A stretch of DNA of 64,000 nucleotides from Pseudomonadota bacterium (GCA_021324855.1 JAJPIG010000011.1:130877-194876), one strand, 5' to 3'; numbered from the stretch's first letter, positions 4,690 through 15,711 are shown. The notes: a model not told the origin generated them from the letters alone. Program-made: numbers and translations.

Positions 4690-5203
4690 TTGCACCCGCA
4701 GGCGATCGACGCTCGCGATTGGCTGGGCTGGGGGACCGGCCGCTGCGAGGTGCCTGATGACTGCTCAACGGGGGGCGCGATTTTGAAGCCAGCTAGGTTT
4801 GTCGATTTGTTCTGCGGCATCGGCGGAATGCGTTTGGCCTTCGAAAGCGTAGGGTGCCGCTGCGTCTTTTCCTCTGACTGGGATGTCCACGCACAGAAAA
4901 CCTACTTCGCAAACTTCGGTGAGGTGCCGGCCGGTGATATTAGGCAGATCGCTTCGTCGCAGATTCCAGAGCACGAAATTTTGACCGCCGGATTTCCATG
5001 CCAGCCGTTCTCAATATCGGGTGTTTCAAAAAAGAAGAGCTTGGGCCGCGCACACGGGTTCCGCGATCGAATTCAAGGGCCTCTTTTTTTTTGAGGTTGC
5101 CCGGATCATTCGTGAAAAGAAGCCGCGAATTTGTCCAAGGGAGGGACGAGCACGATGCCTATCGCGACTAGGCGGAAGGCCGCCAAACCCAAGGTTCCAG
5201 TGA
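4690..5203 (+). pseudogene. DNA cytosine-5 methyltransferase (Dcm-type) remnant, frameshifted at a T9 homopolymer and truncated
   Basis: Track ORF 4690..5094 carries motif I (DLFCGIGG) and motif IV (GFPCQPFS). The continuation GPLFFEVARIIREKKPRI (5021..5203) lies in another frame across a T9 run (~5084-5092). No ENV or TRD/motif IX-X follows. Confidence 0.6.
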
Positions 5204-5415
5204 CGCCGGATGACTTCGAGAACACCGAGAAGTTTCAGGAGCATCTCGCCAAGCTCTCGGAGGGATGGGCCAGTGTCATTCGATGCTACAGCTGCAAACA
5301 GGTGGTCATGATTGTGATCAAAGATTTCACGGACATCGTCGGCGACTACAACGAATGGGACAGCGACTCCAAAGCCGTCTGGTGCGCCCGCTGCAAGCCG
5401 CAGGAAATCCTGTAA
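5131..5415 (+). CDS. small hypothetical protein with a CxxC...CxxC zinc-ribbon-like pattern (likely start ATG ~5155 after GGAGGG)
   Basis: CYSCK...CARCK cysteine pairs. RBS-like GGAGGG sits upstream of the ATG encoding MPIATRRK. Lower-GC segment. Confidence 0.35.
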   Translation: MSKGGTSTMPIATRRKAAKPKVPVTPDDFENTEKFQEHLAKLSEGWASVIRCYSCKQVVMIVIKDFTDIVGDYNEWDSDSKAVWCARCKPQEIL

Positions 5416-5481
5416 GCGAAGAGAAGCGAACCGGAACCGTCGACGTCGCGCCTTGCTAGGCTACGCGGAGGGGCGAGTAAG

Positions 5482-5718
5482 TTGGCTATTGTCAGGGAAC
5501 TGAAAATGCGAGTTTTAGAGTCGGACTCGCGACATACTGAGGCAGACGGCACTTATTCTATCGTCCACCGCTCAGACGGCAGCAAAGTTCTGCAGATCGA
5601 TACCTACGGCTCAAAACACCGCCGCCTTCCTGGCAAAGTGAGTCAATCGATCCGATTCTCGCCTGAAGCGCTCGAACAATTGAAAAAGATCCTCATGGAA
5701 AATTTCGGCGGCTCCTGA
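5482..5718 (+). CDS. hypothetical 78-aa protein in a lower-GC segment
   Basis: ORF only. No recognisable motif. Local GC is lower than the flanks. Confidence 0.25.
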   Translation: MAIVRELKMRVLESDSRHTEADGTYSIVHRSDGSKVLQIDTYGSKHRRLPGKVSQSIRFSPEALEQLKKILMENFGGS

Positions 5719-5835
5719 ACACAACGGTTCTCCGATTTTCCGGCCTGCGGCCGACCCGTAAAGCTGGGCTTTGCCATCCTGCGCTTCTCCGCCATACGGC
5801 TTCACGCTATAAGTTAATCAACAAAATCGAGGGGC

Positions 5836-7227
<1,392 letters not shown>

Positions 7228-10909: not shown

Positions 10910-11146
10910 ATGAGAATTCACGCGGGCGCCAGCGCCGTCACACGCCTTCAGGATCAAGCGGCAGCATCTGGTGCTGCAGGCCGAAACTGCCGGGGAAAAC
11001 TGTGGGCTAATCTCGTTGGTGTTGGCTGTATTTGCGGCCTCTTCGCTCACTTACGCGGACATCACACATACGTGCATGATCCCGACGGCCGCCTGGTGGG
11101 CGTCATCGATGCGTCAGGAAACGTAGTGACATACGTTGGGAACTGA
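10910..11146 (+). CDS. YD-repeat (RHS-like) fragment ORF ending exactly at the junction with toxin-module copy 1
   Basis: Strong RBS GGAGGAGG before the ATG. C-terminus HTYVHDPDGRLVGVIDASGNVVTYVGN matches the YD-repeat consensus. A TGA stop falls at the first bases of the conserved block. Confidence 0.4.
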   Translation: MRIHAGASAVTRLQDQAAASGAAGRNCRGKLWANLVGVGCICGLFAHLRGHHTYVHDPDGRLVGVIDASGNVVTYVGN

Positions 11147-11250
11147 AGTATCCGGGCGGACGGCCGGCGGCTCAGGGAGCGACCACCGGCCAATACCCGG
11201 AATGGGCGCCGGGGCAGGAACCGCTGGCGGGGCGGGTTATGTTGGTGGGC
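11133..11250 (+). repeat. conserved ~115-nt block, copy 1 (encodes RWELKYPGGRPAAQGATTGQYPEWAPGQEPLAGRVMLVG)
   Basis: Near-identical at nucleotide level to 12207..12320 and 13390..13507. Confidence 0.8.
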
Positions 11251-11550
11251 GATTATTCAACCCCGGGGGCGACTGCAAATTCGACGCCCCGGCCGCAGAC
11301 GTCTTCTCCGACACCATCCCCAACGGCCCGCTCCGGAAGCCGCTTTTCGAAGGCGTTCAGCGTATGCATAGCCAACGCGCTCGCTGGCCCATTGATTATT
11401 CCTCCGATAGTCTGCGGGGCGAGCGGATACGCATGCGCCCAGGGTTTTGGGATTGCTGAACCAGCTTGCCAAGTAGCAATACCATTTTGCACTGCGACGA
11501 TCGCAACCATCGGTGCATGCGCGACAGGCGTCGGGACGCCTGAGTTCTAG
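11239..11550 (+). CDS. polymorphic-toxin-like C-terminal module, copy 1 (Ser/Thr/Pro-rich linker plus hydrophobic Cys-containing tail); reading frame extends upstream to ~11125, out of frame with the YD ORF
   Basis: Frame-1 translation ...IRWELKYPGGRPAAQGATTGQYPEWAPGQEPLAGRVMLVGDYSTPGATANSTPRPQTSSPTPSPTARSG...CIANALAGPLIIPPIVCGASGYACAQGFGIAEPACQVAIPFCTATIATIGACATGVGTPEF. The track start is only the first in-frame Met. Confidence 0.4.
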   Translation: MLVGDYSTPGATANSTPRPQTSSPTPSPTARSGSRFSKAFSVCIANALAGPLIIPPIVCGASGYACAQGFGIAEPACQVAIPFCTATIATIGACATGVGTPEF

Positions 11551-11586
11551 AGATGTTATGAGAAGCCGTATCATGAGGCTCCATTT

Positions 11587-11964
11587 ATGCAGAATGTAAA
11601 CCTAACAAAGGGGACTCGAAGAACGATTAAAATCGCAATCTGCGCGATACTGATCGCGCAGGTATTAGGAAACATATGCTTATGGTATTTGAAAGCGGGG
11701 CCTGGCAACATGCGAATAGACCCGCGCCTGATTTTCTTGATTTTGCCCGGAATGATTTATTTGATGTGCACAAACGTACCATATGTGCTCGAAAGCTCGG
11801 AGGGCATTAAGCGTCAGGCCATTCATTACGCGAACTGGGCGCTGGCGTTCGGAATCTGGCAATTCTTAGCGCCGATTGGGCAGAGCGCTCTGGTCGCGCT
11901 CTTCGCAGTTGGTGTAGTGATAATGGTGCTTTCTGTGAAAGATGCTATTCGGGTCGAAGCATAG
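11587..11964 (+). CDS. small polytopic membrane protein (putative cognate immunity protein for module 1)
   Basis: ~4 predicted TM helices (IKIAICAILIAQVLGNICLWYL, LIFLILPGMIYLMC, WALAFGIWQFLAPIG, ALVALFAVGVVIMVL). Lower GC. Sits immediately 3' of module 1. Confidence 0.45.
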   Translation: MQNVNLTKGTRRTIKIAICAILIAQVLGNICLWYLKAGPGNMRIDPRLIFLILPGMIYLMCTNVPYVLESSEGIKRQAIHYANWALAFGIWQFLAPIGQSALVALFAVGVVIMVLSVKDAIRVEA

Positions 11965-12011
11965 CCCTGCTTAAGCGGCCATCCCGGTTGGAACCGTTGG
12001 GTTAGCGACCT

Positions 12012-12611
12012 GTGTCGCGGGCACCGCGGGCCGTGGCGGGATCCGACTTCATCGCTTCTCTGATCGCCGCTGACTTTACCGTGGGCATGATCGATCCGGC
12101 CGATCTGATTCCGGCCGCGGCGATCGCCGAGGCTCTCTATGAGATTGCCGACCTGTTCGGGCCTCGATCTGATCGGCGGCGGCCATCCGTACATTCCGCC
12201 GATTACACGTTGGGAACTGAAGCATCCGGGCGGACGGCGGCTCGGGGAGCGACCACCGGCCAATCCCCGGAATGGGCGCCGGGGCAGGAACCGTCGGCAG
12301 GCCGGGTTATGTTGGTTGGCCAGGTTTTCACCACCGCCCCGTATGCCCCATGCCAAGGCGAATGGATACCTCGGCGCCCCCCGGAAGCGTTAGGCTGGGC
12401 AGGCACCGGTACCGGGAGAGGGGAGGAGCCTGCCAATGGGGATGTGGGTTGTAGACAGTTCTGGGGATGCCGCAACTGTGATGACTGCTCCTTTGACTTA
12501 TACTCTGGGACAGGTCCATGGACGATTGGAAGGGGCGATGGCTGTGTAGCCGCTCCGGCCAGCCCGCAGAAGGGTTGTCCTGATATGAAGTTTTGGCGAG
12601 GACATAGATAG
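12012..12611 (+). CDS. polymorphic-toxin-like protein, copy 2 (conserved N-terminal region plus Cys-rich C-terminal domain)
   Basis: N-terminal IAADFTVGMIDPADLIPAAAIAEALYEIADLFG, the conserved block, then the variable tail CQGEWIP...VGCRQFWGCRNCDDCSFDLYSG...QKGCPD. The internal segment is in a shifted frame relative to copy 3 (+1 then -4 nt). Confidence 0.5.
   Translation: MSRAPRAVAGSDFIASLIAADFTVGMIDPADLIPAAAIAEALYEIADLFGPRSDRRRPSVHSADYTLGTEASGRTAARGATTGQSPEWAPGQEPSAGRVMLVGQVFTTAPYAPCQGEWIPRRPPEALGWAGTGTGRGEEPANGDVGCRQFWGCRNCDDCSFDLYSGTGPWTIGRGDGCVAAPASPQKGCPDMKFWRGHR
12207..12320 (+). repeat. conserved ~115-nt block, copy 2 (4 nt shorter)
   Basis: Nucleotide-level near-identity to copies 1 and 3. 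Confidence 0.8.
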
Positions 12612-12625
12612 GGGGCACACGGACC

Positions 12626-13165
12626 GTGAGAATTCTACGGGCTAAAGTCTATTTCCTTTTAATTTTAATTTTTCTTATAAGTACGATCGGCGCTGAGCAG
12701 CGACCCGCTGATGCTGCTCAACGTCCGAGCGCTCTGTTGCTTTATCCCAAGGCATCAAACGTCTCGTCCGGACGGAATGGAAACGACCTCACTTATCACG
12801 TCAATGTTAAGTATCCTGCCTCCGATTTTATCGGCTGGATTTCCAACAGGTTACAGGAGTTAGGCTGGGAGCCCCTTAAGGAGGATTTCCTGAACCCGGG
12901 CCTTCCAACATCTCAAGTAAGAGGCTGGTTGGAGTTCGTCGATGAGCGCAAAAAGCCTGAATTGATTCATCAATGGATCGGCGATTGGAAGGACTCCTCC
13001 GGAAACATCGTACGTTATGCACTTCGGTACAGGAAGCCCGGATATGGTACTTCCGACTTGACTGATTTGGAGGTGATAGCTTCGTACGATTCGGCCTCGA
13101 CTGTGCGCAAGCTACAGCGGAGCGTCGAACGATTCAAAGAGACTCAACAGCGATCCCCTCACTAA
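12626..13165 (+). CDS. secreted protein with signal peptide (putative immunity protein A)
   Basis: N-terminal signal peptide (VYFLLILIFLISTIGA). ~45% identical to the 13833..14339 product (shared FLNPGLPTSQVRGW and DWKDSSGNIVRYA). AT-rich start. Sits immediately 3' of module 2. Confidence 0.5.
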   Translation: MRILRAKVYFLLILIFLISTIGAEQRPADAAQRPSALLLYPKASNVSSGRNGNDLTYHVNVKYPASDFIGWISNRLQELGWEPLKEDFLNPGLPTSQVRGWLEFVDERKKPELIHQWIGDWKDSSGNIVRYALRYRKPGYGTSDLTDLEVIASYDSASTVRKLQRSVERFKETQQRSPH

Positions 13166-13168
13166 CCC

Positions 13169-13801
13169 TTGCTCAAGCGGAGCTTCGTCACCGTGGGCGA
13201 CGGCGCCGCCGCAGGCATGGAGGCGTGTAATGCATTCATCGCCGCTGATCTGGCGTTCGGCGATACGAATCCCGGCACCGCGTTGCCGGCTTGGGCGGTG
13301 GCGGCGATCGCAGAGGCAATTTATGGGATTGCCGACCTGTTCGGCCTCGATCTGTTCGGCGGCGGCCATCCGTACATTCCGCCGATCATACGTTGGGAGA
13401 TAAAGCATCCGGGCGGACGGCCGGCGGCTCAGGGAGCGACCACCGGCCAATACCCGGAATGGGCGCCGGGGCAGGAACCGCTGGCGGGGCGGATCATGTT
13501 GGTGGGCGTGAATGATTGTGGCGGCGAATGGGTGAATACAAAGTCTCGCGACAGTTTGGTCATCTGCTCCCCCAACTATGGCTGCGCGACTCTCGGGTGT
13601 CTTTGTTACTGGGGGTGTCGAGAGTGCGACGGCTCCTTTGACCTATACTCTGGGGACGTAGAGTCCGGGAACGGGCCCACCACGCGAGGCATACCGCTGG
13701 GCAATGGTGGTTGCTCTTGCTTGAATTATCCGGGTCCACAGCAAGGTTGCCAAAAGAATAACCCGCCTGGTCCTGGTATTTGGCGCCGCCGAAACCCTTA
13801 G
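13169..13801 (+). CDS. polymorphic-toxin-like protein, copy 3 (intact frame)
   Basis: AADLAFGDTNPGTALPAWAVAAIAEAIYGIADLFGLDLFGGGHPYIPPIIRWEIKHPGGRPAAQGATTGQYPEWAPGQEPLAGRIMLVG followed by the Cys-rich tail CGGEWVN...CLCYWGCRECDGSFDLYSG...QQGCQK. Confidence 0.55.
   Translation: MLKRSFVTVGDGAAAGMEACNAFIAADLAFGDTNPGTALPAWAVAAIAEAIYGIADLFGLDLFGGGHPYIPPIIRWEIKHPGGRPAAQGATTGQYPEWAPGQEPLAGRIMLVGVNDCGGEWVNTKSRDSLVICSPNYGCATLGCLCYWGCRECDGSFDLYSGDVESGNGPTTRGIPLGNGGCSCLNYPGPQQGCQKNNPPGPGIWRRRNP
13390..13507 (+). repeat. conserved ~115-nt block, copy 3
   Basis: Nucleotide-level near-identity to copies 1 and 2. Confidence 0.8.
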
Positions 13802-13832
13802 ATTTGATGGCCAGGGCGTTAGGAGTATCAAT

Positions 13833-14339
13833 ATGGCGGTTCGAGGCAAGATTTTCGCGGTCTGGGCTATAATTGGTTTAGTCTTGATTCAGGTACATTT
13901 TGTCTACACGCGCGAATATCCTGAAGCACTGCTTGAGTACCCTAGCGCTAAGGCTGCGAAATATAGCGAGGTCGAGGGCAAAACACAGCTTGACTACTTC
14001 TTGGACACCAAGTTTCCCGCTTCAGGGGTGATTGGCTGGGTTTCCGATCACCTTAAGGATGCCGGATGGAAACCACTCACGCATGATTTTCTGAATCCGA
14101 CATTACCCTCATCTCAGGTACAGGGTTGGCGTCACTTCATAGACGGAAGAGGAAAACACGATATCTGCGTTCATGCCTGGACGGGGGACTGGACGGACGC
14201 CTCCGGGAATGTTGTCACGTATGCTTTTATATACCGGACCGTTGATTGTAGCACTTCACATTTGACCAATCTTGAAGTGTTGGTCGTATATTATCCTGCG
14301 CAAACTGCAGAGCAATTCAGAAAGCTCGGAGGCGGATAG
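13833..14339 (+). CDS. secreted protein with signal peptide (putative immunity protein B), paralog of 12626..13165
   Basis: Signal peptide (IFAVWAIIGLVLIQV). Shares FLNPTLPSSQVQGW and DWTDASGNVVTYA with immunity A. Sits immediately 3' of module 3. Confidence 0.5.
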   Translation: MAVRGKIFAVWAIIGLVLIQVHFVYTREYPEALLEYPSAKAAKYSEVEGKTQLDYFLDTKFPASGVIGWVSDHLKDAGWKPLTHDFLNPTLPSSQVQGWRHFIDGRGKHDICVHAWTGDWTDASGNVVTYAFIYRTVDCSTSHLTNLEVLVVYYPAQTAEQFRKLGGG

Positions 14340-14383
14340 CGGCCCGCGGGCTCAGCCCTGCCTCAGCCTGGCCAGCCGAAGAA

Positions 14384-14500
14384 CTCATCGCCGCCGATCT
14401 GACGTTCGGCGATACCAATCCCGGCACGGCGTTACCGGCTTGGACGGTGGCGGCGATCGCCGAGGCCATCTATGGGAGTGCCGACCTGTTCGGGCCTCGA
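14384..14500 (+). pseudogene. truncated fourth copy of the toxin-module N-terminal region
   Basis: ELIAADLTFGDTNPGTALPAWTVAAIAEAIYGSADLFG matches the copy-3 N-terminus at nucleotide level. It carries the copy-2-type variant ttcgggcctcgatctgatcg, then diverges and terminates. Confidence 0.45.
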
Positions 14501-14619
14501 TCTGATCGCAGCCCCCCGCATCGCACGGTTCTTTGCCCTCGCCCAAATTGGGGGAGGCTGAGGGCGCCTGAAGGTCCGATTGACATATGCCCTCTGAGGT
14601 GCGGTGATTTGAGCGGCGC

Positions 14620-15711
14620 ATGATGGCGGGGCCAACCAAAGAATTGCTCATGGTCGGGAGCGTGCCGCTCGATACGGCGGAGGAAGTGATGCGCGCGCTC
14701 GCTGAAAAGCTGGGCCCATCGCTCGATTGCTTCCCCGACGGCGAGGTCGGCGAGCGTCATCGATGGATCACGTTCCAGGCCTATCGCGTGATGCACGGTC
14801 ATCCTGAGATCGAGACGCTCACCCGGCCTGCACCGATCAACGGGGTCGAAAGCTGGCGTCCCCGTGACATCCACGATTACTGGAGCTTCCGCGTTCGTCC
14901 CGGAGTCGAGCGCGTGCGCTTCGGCGATCCCGGATGGCGGCTCGGCTACGCGCACGACGCGGCCAATTCCTATTTTGTCTTCAAGACGCTCCGCGCGCAG
15001 GGCGTGATTCCCGCCGCCGCGCGCTTCCAGGTCTGCATCCCATTGCCGCTGAGCGTGCTGTATCTCCAGTTTCGCGATCCCGCGGATTGGGATCGCGTGG
15101 GGCCGGGCTACGAAGCCGCGATGCGTGACGAGATCGCGACTATCGTGCGGCAGATTCCCGCGCGCGACCTCGCGATCCAATGGGATTGCGCGAGCGAGAT
15201 GGTCGACCTTGAAAATTTCCTGCCGTGGACGCCGGGCGAAGGCAAGCTCGAGCGGCTCGTTGGGGAGATCGAACGGCTCAGGATGAGCGCGATTCCCGAG
15301 GACGTCTGGCTCGGGCTCCATCTCTGCTACGGCACGCTCGGCGGATGGCCGATGGTGATGCCCAAGGATTTCGGGCTCTGTGTTCAGGTCGCCAACGCGG
15401 CGGCCGCGGTTGCCGGACGCCGATTCGATTTCATCCATATGCCGGGGCCGGCGAATCGCTTCGACGACGATTTCTATCGGCCGCTCAGCGATTTGAAGAT
15501 ACCCGGCGCGCGCATCTACCTCGGCATGATTCACGATCACGAGCAGGACGCGGAGCCGCTGCGCCGGCGGATCGAGGTGGCGCGGCGTTATCTCCCGGAA
15601 TTCGGACTCGGCGCGCCGTGCGGCTTCGGTCGCCGCAAGCGCGAGGAGATTCCGCGCGCCTTGGAAGCGCATCGTGTCGCCGCGGAAACCTTGCGCGCAT
15701 CGCAAGCCTGA
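14620..15711 (+). CDS. MetE C-terminal-domain-like (UroD/MetE superfamily) putative Zn-dependent methyltransferase, paralog of 50080..51138
   Basis: Motif order resembles cobalamin-independent methionine synthase: DLAIQWD (cf. IQIDE), LHLCYGT (cf. HMCYS His/Cys Zn ligands), C-terminal GAPCGFGRR (cf. PDCGLKTR). Clear paralogy with the 50080 gene. Confidence 0.5.
   Translation: MMAGPTKELLMVGSVPLDTAEEVMRALAEKLGPSLDCFPDGEVGERHRWITFQAYRVMHGHPEIETLTRPAPINGVESWRPRDIHDYWSFRVRPGVERVRFGDPGWRLGYAHDAANSYFVFKTLRAQGVIPAAARFQVCIPLPLSVLYLQFRDPADWDRVGPGYEAAMRDEIATIVRQIPARDLAIQWDCASEMVDLENFLPWTPGEGKLERLVGEIERLRMSAIPEDVWLGLHLCYGTLGGWPMVMPKDFGLCVQVANAAAAVAGRRFDFIHMPGPANRFDDDFYRPLSDLKIPGARIYLGMIHDHEQDAEPLRRRIEVARRYLPEFGLGAPCGFGRRKREEIPRALEAHRVAAETLRASQA

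Follow-up and report, generated by a model that had tools for sequence, protein, structure and literature searches.

Orphan rhs-CT/rhsI modules are known from Enterobacteria, including Salmonella Typhimurium (PMC7043789) and Serratia (PMC10539506). They are tandem cassettes from which the N-terminal delivery part is missing, their lower-GC tip and immunity genes lie past a sharp boundary, they are transferred as units, and immunity genes are also found on their own. The array that we describe here resembles them in these respects. It lies at 10910-14510, on the plus strand, of a 64,000-nt stretch from a Pseudomonadota bacterium assembly (GCA_021324855.1 JAJPIG010000011.1:130877-194876), which we call the window and from whose first letter all positions are counted. 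It comprises a decayed head stub, three modules and the remnant of a fourth block, and each module runs from a conserved block of ~110 aa through a variable tail to a small downstream gene. We refer to the tails as T1 to T3 and to the downstream genes and their products as I1 to I3.

The array also differs from the enterobacterial modules. There is no full-length rhs gene upstream of it or anywhere in the 64 kb, its ~110-aa block ends in MLVG and comes, in relatives, after a core end that is degenerate (GRPL..GP.), two tips out of three have decayed, and its host phylum is probably Binatota. We consider that the array is quite probably an island of orphan Rhs-type cassettes, each with a putative toxin tip and its cognate immunity gene. 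The toxin families, the immunity families and the pre-toxin block are undescribed, and the system is of a well-known kind: that tip and immunity gene co-vary as cognate pairs in orphan arrays is a textbook principle.

Two other systems invite comparison. Target-cell DsbA activates some delivered effectors, among them Ssp2 and Ssp4 of the Serratia type VI secretion system (T6SS) (PMC5792426), and in these pairs, as proposed here for modules 2 and 3, a Sec-exported periplasmic immunity protein accompanies an effector that is made in the cytoplasm and has conserved Cys residues, presumably oxidised after delivery. However our Cys-rich domain is much smaller, at ~85 aa, is borne on Rhs proteins, carries no recognisable enzyme motif and has no sequence or fold relationship to Ssp2 or Ssp4, and any dependence on DsbA would be by analogy. 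In Pseudomonas aeruginosa the pore-forming toxin Tse5-CT is carried on an Rhs protein, and its immunity protein, Tsi5, is integral to the membrane (PMC9637101, PMC10684867). Module 1 can be likened to this pair by analogy only, having a hydrophobic Rhs tip without enzymatic motif and a small partner with several transmembrane (TM) segments, but T1 has six Cys and a Ser/Thr/Pro-rich linker and is truncated, and I1 has 3-4 TM segments as against the two predicted in Tsi5.

The Cys-rich tails and their partners

Modules 2 and 3 both have a Cys-rich Rhs-CT domain as tail. T2 (12322-12611, +) has 7 Cys and matches the tail profile with E 3.5e-22, and T3 (13509-13801, +) has 10 Cys and matches it with E 1.9e-28. 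When compared without the block they are 37% identical (BLASTP, E 4e-9), with the motifs C.GEW, WGCR[NE]CD..SFDLYSG (with a length difference of one residue) and Q[KQ]GC in common. The genes that follow, I2 (12626-13165, +; 179 aa with a signal peptide) and I3 (13833-14339, +; 168 aa with an N-terminal hydrophobic signal or anchor), encode putative periplasmic immunity proteins that are 47% identical over 137 aa (E 6e-45). A first-pass annotation of the same DNA had proposed both relationships, listing these motifs and giving ~45% identity for the downstream proteins, and the comparisons bear it out.

Alignment of 16 tails reveals six invariant Cys in the pattern C.G.W ... C.C.W.C..C.G..(D)LY ... 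G..C ... P.TGCP. An N-terminus that is basic and then hydrophobic, as in signal peptides, is present in all 27 distinct members of the I2/I3 family, and three of them have a lipobox-like motif. Signal peptides and invariant Cys together fit a tip that would fold, act and be blocked in the oxidising periplasm; for modules 2 and 3 the first-pass annotation had predicted action there or outside the cell. A reading of the tail as an HNH or zinc-finger nuclease was rejected, as it is without the conserved His, Asn and acidic catalytic set; only the D of the DLY motif is conserved, and the partner is exported. The AlphaFold2 model of I3, made from a two-sequence alignment, is an alpha+beta sandwich with a predicted local distance difference test score (pLDDT) of 70 and a predicted template modelling score of 0.65.

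Members of the family also occur as solitary genes (L008/L025, L015/L027/L029, L009/L026, L013, L016, L030 and L032), with up to 49% identity to I3. In metagenome-assembled genomes (MAGs) of Binatus and Binataceae they adjoin genes for H+-PPase, an aldo/keto reductase, a PrmC-like methyltransferase and DnaN.

Tail type predicts the partner

If tails and downstream genes are cognate, then a tail of a given type should be followed by a partner of the corresponding type wherever it is found. Word-index searches with T3, with I3 and with the tail profile gave back little other than the queries and missed I2 when started from I3, so that their silence was not read as absence; a search for related loci with the tail alignment gave none that could be confirmed in genomes or metagenomes. 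A query of four I-family sequences retrieved 27 further loci, and in L010/11, L014, L017, L019, L020/31 and L028 a Cys-rich tail lies directly upstream of the I-family gene.

The unbiased direction is that in which the tail is found first. An exhaustive HMMER search with T3 gave 14 proteins, and on the contigs of seven HMMER-found tail proteins, which we inspected, the next gene was of the I family in every case (E 1e-47 to 1e-72). The same holds for P0013, a tail protein from the word-index search, which is in an orphan array (L005) that has an I2/I3 homologue next downstream of it and another at the contig start. With modules 2 and 3 included, ten of ten tail-first loci have an I2/I3-family gene as the next gene. 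Over both directions there are 16 distinct pairs of Cys-rich tail and I-family gene, all 16 adjacent, with gaps of 32-156 nt.

Multi-module arrays provide an internal control, as other tails are present in the same array. In a hand count over the window, L005, L028, L034, L036 and L039, an I-family gene follows 7/7 Cys-rich tails and 0/12 other tails (Fisher p ~2e-5). Upstream of the pair stands either a canonical Rhs end or one of at least four versions of the pre-toxin block, giving at least five scaffolds in all, and therefore tip and partner move as a unit. Divergence of the tails is correlated with that of their partners (Mantel r 0.49, p 1e-4; r 0.25, p 0.02 when a near-duplicate pair is left out), the partners of different arrays being 31-64% identical apart from the near-duplicate L020/L028 (85%).

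A third type of tail, with a 138-aa TM partner, is present in both L036 and L039 behind different blocks. Given this recurrence and those of the T2/T3 and T1 types (see below), the rule that tail type predicts partner holds for three families. Co-variation of this kind had been put forward in the first-pass annotation as the signature of cognate toxin and immunity pairs, and the ten tail-first loci, the 16 pairs and the T1/I1 module of L036 support it.

The Cys-rich tail in Rhs proteins

In relatives the tail is found where an Rhs toxin tip would be expected. PxxxxDPxGL demarcates Rhs toxin tips (PMC7043789), and in P0015, P0020, L010 and L014 the Cys-rich tail comes directly after a TIGR03696 match (62-86 bits) and this motif. 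In P0015 the TIGR03696 match of 86 bits covers residues 61-136 and ends just before the tail. The sequences PVLLADPLGL, PILFFDPFGL, PNLFTDPYGL, PVTRLDPSGL and PTLLTDPSGL stand immediately ahead of the C.G.W motif. The ORF (open reading frame) of L014 has RHS_repeat (E 1.5e-23) and TIGR01643 matches, with the tail at its extreme C-terminus, and that of L017 has RHS_repeat (E 2.3e-11) and partial, sub-threshold matches to TEN_YD-shell (24.5 bits, cut-off 50) and RHS (20.1 bits, cut-off 27.9). By these sequence features the Cys-rich tail qualifies as a genuine C-terminal domain of Rhs proteins.

The block of the window modules is likewise found in Rhs-like proteins. In P0002, P0010 and L028 it sits after an Rhs core end (YTYDP.G...YY.PGRYYSP..GRPL..GP.), which in P0002 gives a match to no more than the first half of TIGR03696 (18 bits, under the cut-off) and has no DPxGL.

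Module 1

The tail of module 1 (T1, 11252-11550, +) consists of a Ser/Thr/Pro-rich linker and then a hydrophobic segment with six Cys, and has no similarity to T3. It is putatively a candidate membrane-acting toxin tip. I1 (11587-11964, +) is a protein of 125 aa with 3-4 hydrophobic segments of TM length by hydropathy, without similarity to I3, and is a putative membrane immunity protein for the T1-type tail. The description of the tail in the first-pass annotation, as Ser/Thr/Pro-rich with a hydrophobic Cys-containing part and unrelated to the others, thus holds, as does that of the partner as an unrelated membrane protein; the four TM segments given for the latter become three or four.

An intact T1-type module is present in L036, a locus that had been reached through a Cys-rich tail, with its T1-type tail at 4964-5614 (phmmer E 1e-13); both T1-type tails end in PEF. 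Directly downstream of it is an I1 homologue (5681-6061; 55% identity, E 1e-42), and so the T1-type tail is followed by an I1-type protein in both loci that have it. In the window the sole in-frame start of T1 is the Met of MLVG, the gene being truncated at the 5' end, and T1 is probably a pseudogene there, unless the junction ATG at 11239 serves for its expression.

The conserved block and the state of the array

A conserved stretch of ~270 nt is present four times in the array. DNA identity between the copies is 74-95% and drops abruptly past ATGTTGGTGGGC, which encodes MLVG, and from there the tails diverge. Each of the three tails has ~95-100 codons and is followed after 14-36 nt by the small ORF. 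GC content is 66-71% in the blocks, 57-60% in the tails and 49% in the downstream genes, with 65-68% in flanking genes, and this is the classic composition step between Rhs core and tip. No toxin ORF of the array exceeds 210 aa, and all are without an N-terminal delivery part while keeping the shared block, as in orphan modules.

Of the four copies only one is complete and in frame, that of module 3 (13169-13508, +), for which the start used by gene callers is GTG 13193 (P0001). Module 1 has only the 3' half (11130-11251, +; RWELKYPGG...AGRVMLVG), with 95% DNA identity to 13387-13508. The block of module 2 (12012-12321, +) is complete but has two indels, +1 at ~12160 and -4 at ~12236, and P0011 represents the alternative frame. 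The fourth copy (14385-14510, +) is a 5' half, 91% identical to 13236-13344, which carries the +1 G insertion of module 2 and then runs into unrelated sequence. It has no tail or immunity gene, and is a cassette that has lost both. The shared block, the loss of the T1 start, the indels of T2 and the fourth remnant had no mention in the first-pass annotation.

The indels of module 2 compensate, so that an ORF of 199 codons stays open, with the 26 most conserved residues of the block (GGGHPYIPPITRWELKHPGG) misframed in T2 by comparison with module 3 and P0002. Among the toxin ORFs of the array T3 alone thus has its reading frame intact. The locus, indels included, is 100% identical in two independent metagenome assemblies of the European Nucleotide Archive (ENA), and module 2 is also identical in a Joint Genome Institute contig (matching loci L003, L004 and L012). 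Because the locus is identical across independent assemblies the indels are not assembly noise, and an assembly artefact was rejected, the same sequence being present in three other assemblies. In the ENA assemblies the gene callers call I1, I2, T3 and I3.

The array begins with a stub ORF (10910-11146, +) of 78 aa, which has a strong ribosome binding site and an ATG start, contains one YD/RHS repeat (Pfam RHS_repeat, E 9.5e-4; TIGR01643, 18.4 bits, cut-off 15.8) and ends in TGA. Its fusion to the half-block of module 1, at ~11130, is out of frame, and the stub looks like the deletion remnant of an Rhs-like head gene of the array. A programmed -1 frameshift from stub to T1 was rejected, as there is no X XXY YYZ heptamer ahead of the TGA at 11144.

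In all three modules an ATG, for the M of MLVG, is exactly at the border of block and tail (11239, 12309 and 13496), with a G-rich stretch upstream. These junction ATGs may be internal starts that give tail-only products.

With regard to the block in other loci, a fast-diverging pre-toxin region recurs in the window blocks, P0002, P0010, P0012, P0014, P0017, P0018, L005, L028, L036 and L039. Its layout is a Gly-rich hydrophobic stretch, (D)LFGGG.P, an aromatic motif, GG.P and an end in LVG or LVxQ, and it separates a degenerate Rhs core end from tips of many kinds, with no Pfam match. It may replace the canonical DPxGL cleavage module. The possibility that the block holds a second DPxGL site was rejected, as its 'DLFGL' is not kept in relatives.

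Function of the array and alternative explanations

We suggest that a cassette of this array would consist of a conserved pre-toxin block, a variable C-terminal toxin tip and a tightly linked cognate immunity gene, and that tips and immunity genes would shuttle between delivery scaffolds as units. T2/I2 and T3/I3 would then be one undescribed family pair, its six-Cys tip most likely disulfide-stabilised and acting in the periplasm of the target cell, where the Sec-exported alpha+beta protein would neutralise it through direct binding. T1/I1 would be a second pair, in which a hydrophobic, small-residue-rich and Cys-containing tip may act on the cytoplasmic membrane and be blocked by the membrane protein with its 3-4 TM segments. 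What the sequences show directly is the homologies, the anatomy and decay of the array, the conserved adjacency, the link to Rhs proteins, the signal peptides and the step in base composition; that the tips are toxic and bound by their partners, where they act, how they are delivered and that they recombine we infer. In its present state the array has a truncated head and T1, a frameshifted T2, an intact T3 without delivery domain and three intact immunity genes. As the toxins are decayed or undelivered while the immunity genes are intact, the present function is most likely protection against the toxins of neighbours. T3 may be a reserve tip, available for recombination, by way of the shared block, with a full-length gene located elsewhere.

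There are several points that weigh against this reading. None of T1-T3 and I1-I3 has a Pfam or NCBIfam match at E <= 1, and 20 members of the I family gave no consistent Pfam family, the one match, to DUF6810 with E 0.14, being at chance level. The profiles of tail and I family have no sequence relative in the PDB, and the structure model of the tail (pLDDT 41) is unusable and gives no clue to activity. The Mantel correlation could come from physical linkage alone, and the T1/I1 pairing rests on one extra locus (L036). As for delivery, the 64-kb window has no ORF of more than 839 aa, no RHS core and no full-length Rhs gene, the ten flanking ORFs scanned (8.9-22.2 kb) are metabolic and include neither PAAR or VgrG genes nor any for secretion, and the 41 loci fetched include no long Rhs ORF (no ORF with YD-repeat motifs exceeds 600 aa), although the Rhs ORFs of L010/11 and L014 are cut off by the start of the contig. 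A T6SS effector would be marked by a PAAR or prePAAR N-terminus or by vgrG, hcp, tss or Eag chaperone genes next to it; the cassettes have no N-terminal delivery domain, and the ten flanking ORFs encode metabolic enzymes. The window modules are also without PxxxxDPxGL, the conserved part ending in AGR[IV]MLVG, and we therefore treat them as Rhs-orphan-like modules of a non-canonical subtype. The decay of T1 and T2, the best fold match of I3 and the solitary members of its family also count on this side, and each bears on an alternative explanation.

The I3 model and the solitary genes raise the question of whether the partners are immunity proteins at all. The best Foldseek match of the model is DcrB, which is a periplasmic lipoprotein but not an immunity protein (E 4e-4, TM-score 0.40-0.46, 11-12% identity), followed by Mog1p, PsbP and SciW, the last a DUF1795 Eag chaperone, so that the model resembles a group of sandwich proteins of which DcrB is also periplasmic. 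Solitary I2/I3-family genes stand beside housekeeping genes in at least seven contexts, in Binatus and Binataceae MAGs, with no tail or toxin remnant near them. Both observations would suit a lineage-specific periplasmic housekeeping or accessory family (DcrB/PsbP-like), for example a folding helper, a target mimic or a receptor. However the fold match is weak and to a model of pLDDT 70, and may point to a resemblance of fold at most and not to family membership. A non-immunity role would also have to accommodate adjacency to Cys-rich tails over many scaffolds, 16 of 16 as against none of 12 for other tails, a family whose strong diversification (31-64% identity) parallels that of the tails, and partners that remain intact in the window while T1 and T2 decay. 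Nor could a Sec-exported protein chaperone an Rhs-borne tip that is made in the cytoplasm before the tip is exported. Solitary, or orphan, immunity genes are a known phenomenon (PMC10539506). We read the solitary I2/I3-family genes, by analogy, as genes of this kind, a housekeeping role being possible for some of them. A role other than immunity for the family as a whole seems distinctly unlikely to us. Homology to housekeeping lipoproteins had been named in the first-pass annotation as a finding that would speak against immunity; the DcrB match and the solitary genes touch on it, but are outweighed by the synteny.

The state of the array could also be taken to mean that it is a non-functional graveyard, T3 included, in which the partners are merely not yet degraded and co-variation is a matter of history. 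T1 has lost its 5' part and its frame, T2 carries two indels, the fourth module is half a block, T1 and T2 are skipped by the gene callers in two assemblies, no delivery gene is in the window, and a consensus promoter scan gives no more sites than shuffled sequence, promoters and terminators being at background. Yet the three partner genes and T3 are open at full length, the gaps between tail and partner are still only 14-36 nt, purine-rich stretches like Shine-Dalgarno sequences precede I1, I2, I3 and more weakly T3, and the identical locus has been recovered in several assemblies. Retention of immunity genes while toxins decay is in any case what immunity function predicts, and we doubt that the array is simply dead. 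More improbable still, and very unlikely, is that the tails are made alone, from the junction ATG or from the start of T3, and serve inside the producer as growth regulators of toxin-antitoxin (TA) type and not as delivered weapons. The ATG at the block/tail boundary of all three modules, with its G-rich upstream stretch, would suit such a role, and there is the precedent of Salmonella, where main and orphan Rhs-CTs are expressed internally and act as type II TA modules (PMC7043789). However the I2/I3 partners are exported (signal peptides in 27/27) and unable to neutralise a toxin in the cytoplasm, where a six-Cys domain is in addition unlikely to fold given the reducing conditions, and the Met is missing from the more distant blocks, which have the endings LVGD, LVAQ and LIVDQ.

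A further reading concerns the form of delivery. The array heads in L028 (2051-3202) and L036 (1973-3178) are 'mini-Rhs' proteins of ~390 aa, homologous from near their N-termini (35%, E 6e-46). Directly upstream of each there is an unrelated gene, for a housekeeping-type enzyme in L028 and a 197-aa ORF without Pfam match in L036. These homologous heads leave room for a non-canonical, shell-less form of delivery. The window cassettes would then belong to a distinct class of short polymorphic toxins, confined to Binatota. Their conserved mini-Rhs heads of ~390 aa would combine some three YD-like repeats and a degenerate core end that has no DPxGL with a hydrophobic stretch rich in glycine and a new type of pre-toxin block that terminates in LVG or LVxQ; export and delivery would proceed without a full Rhs cage or T6SS, and the six-Cys tip would represent a small periplasmic toxin of a new kind, directed at a new target. 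We regard this combination of proposals as rather unlikely.

If the array is, as we favour, an island of toxin-tip and immunity cassettes, it would add two and probably three undescribed family pairs to the repertoire of polymorphic toxins. It would also be the first evidence that Binatota, an uncultured phylum of soil and peat, engage in antagonism of the Rhs type between bacteria; our literature search found no paper describing such a system in this phylum. The Cys-rich tip is attractive for experiment, being small, present on many scaffolds and always accompanied by an exported partner, and as it is without a recognisable enzymatic motif its target is likely to be new for delivered toxins. 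The many solitary partner genes suggest that selection by this toxin weighs heavily in those communities.

Host, neighbouring genes and other cassettes

All eight genome-derived I-family loci are from Binatota MAGs (Candidatus Binatus soli, Binatus sp., Binataceae and some with old 'Deltaproteobacteria' labels). The host genome of the array is probably also of Binatota.

Upstream of the array is a methyltransferase gene on the opposite strand, and the upstream genes in L003 are likewise metabolic. Just past the array there is an ORF of 363 aa (14620-15711, +) without Pfam match, which overlaps an ORF of 411 codons on the opposite strand (14470-15705).

The arrays of related loci include other cassettes, at 803-1816 in L039, 6299-7237 in L028 and 7331-8398 in L034. 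Among the combinations seen are a tip with a Pfam 3D domain (from precomputed contig annotation), whose 254-aa partner has an internal hydrophobic segment; a Gly-rich tip accompanied by a membrane protein of Rce1-like/CPBP type; and a Gly/aromatic tip with a 72-aa TM partner.

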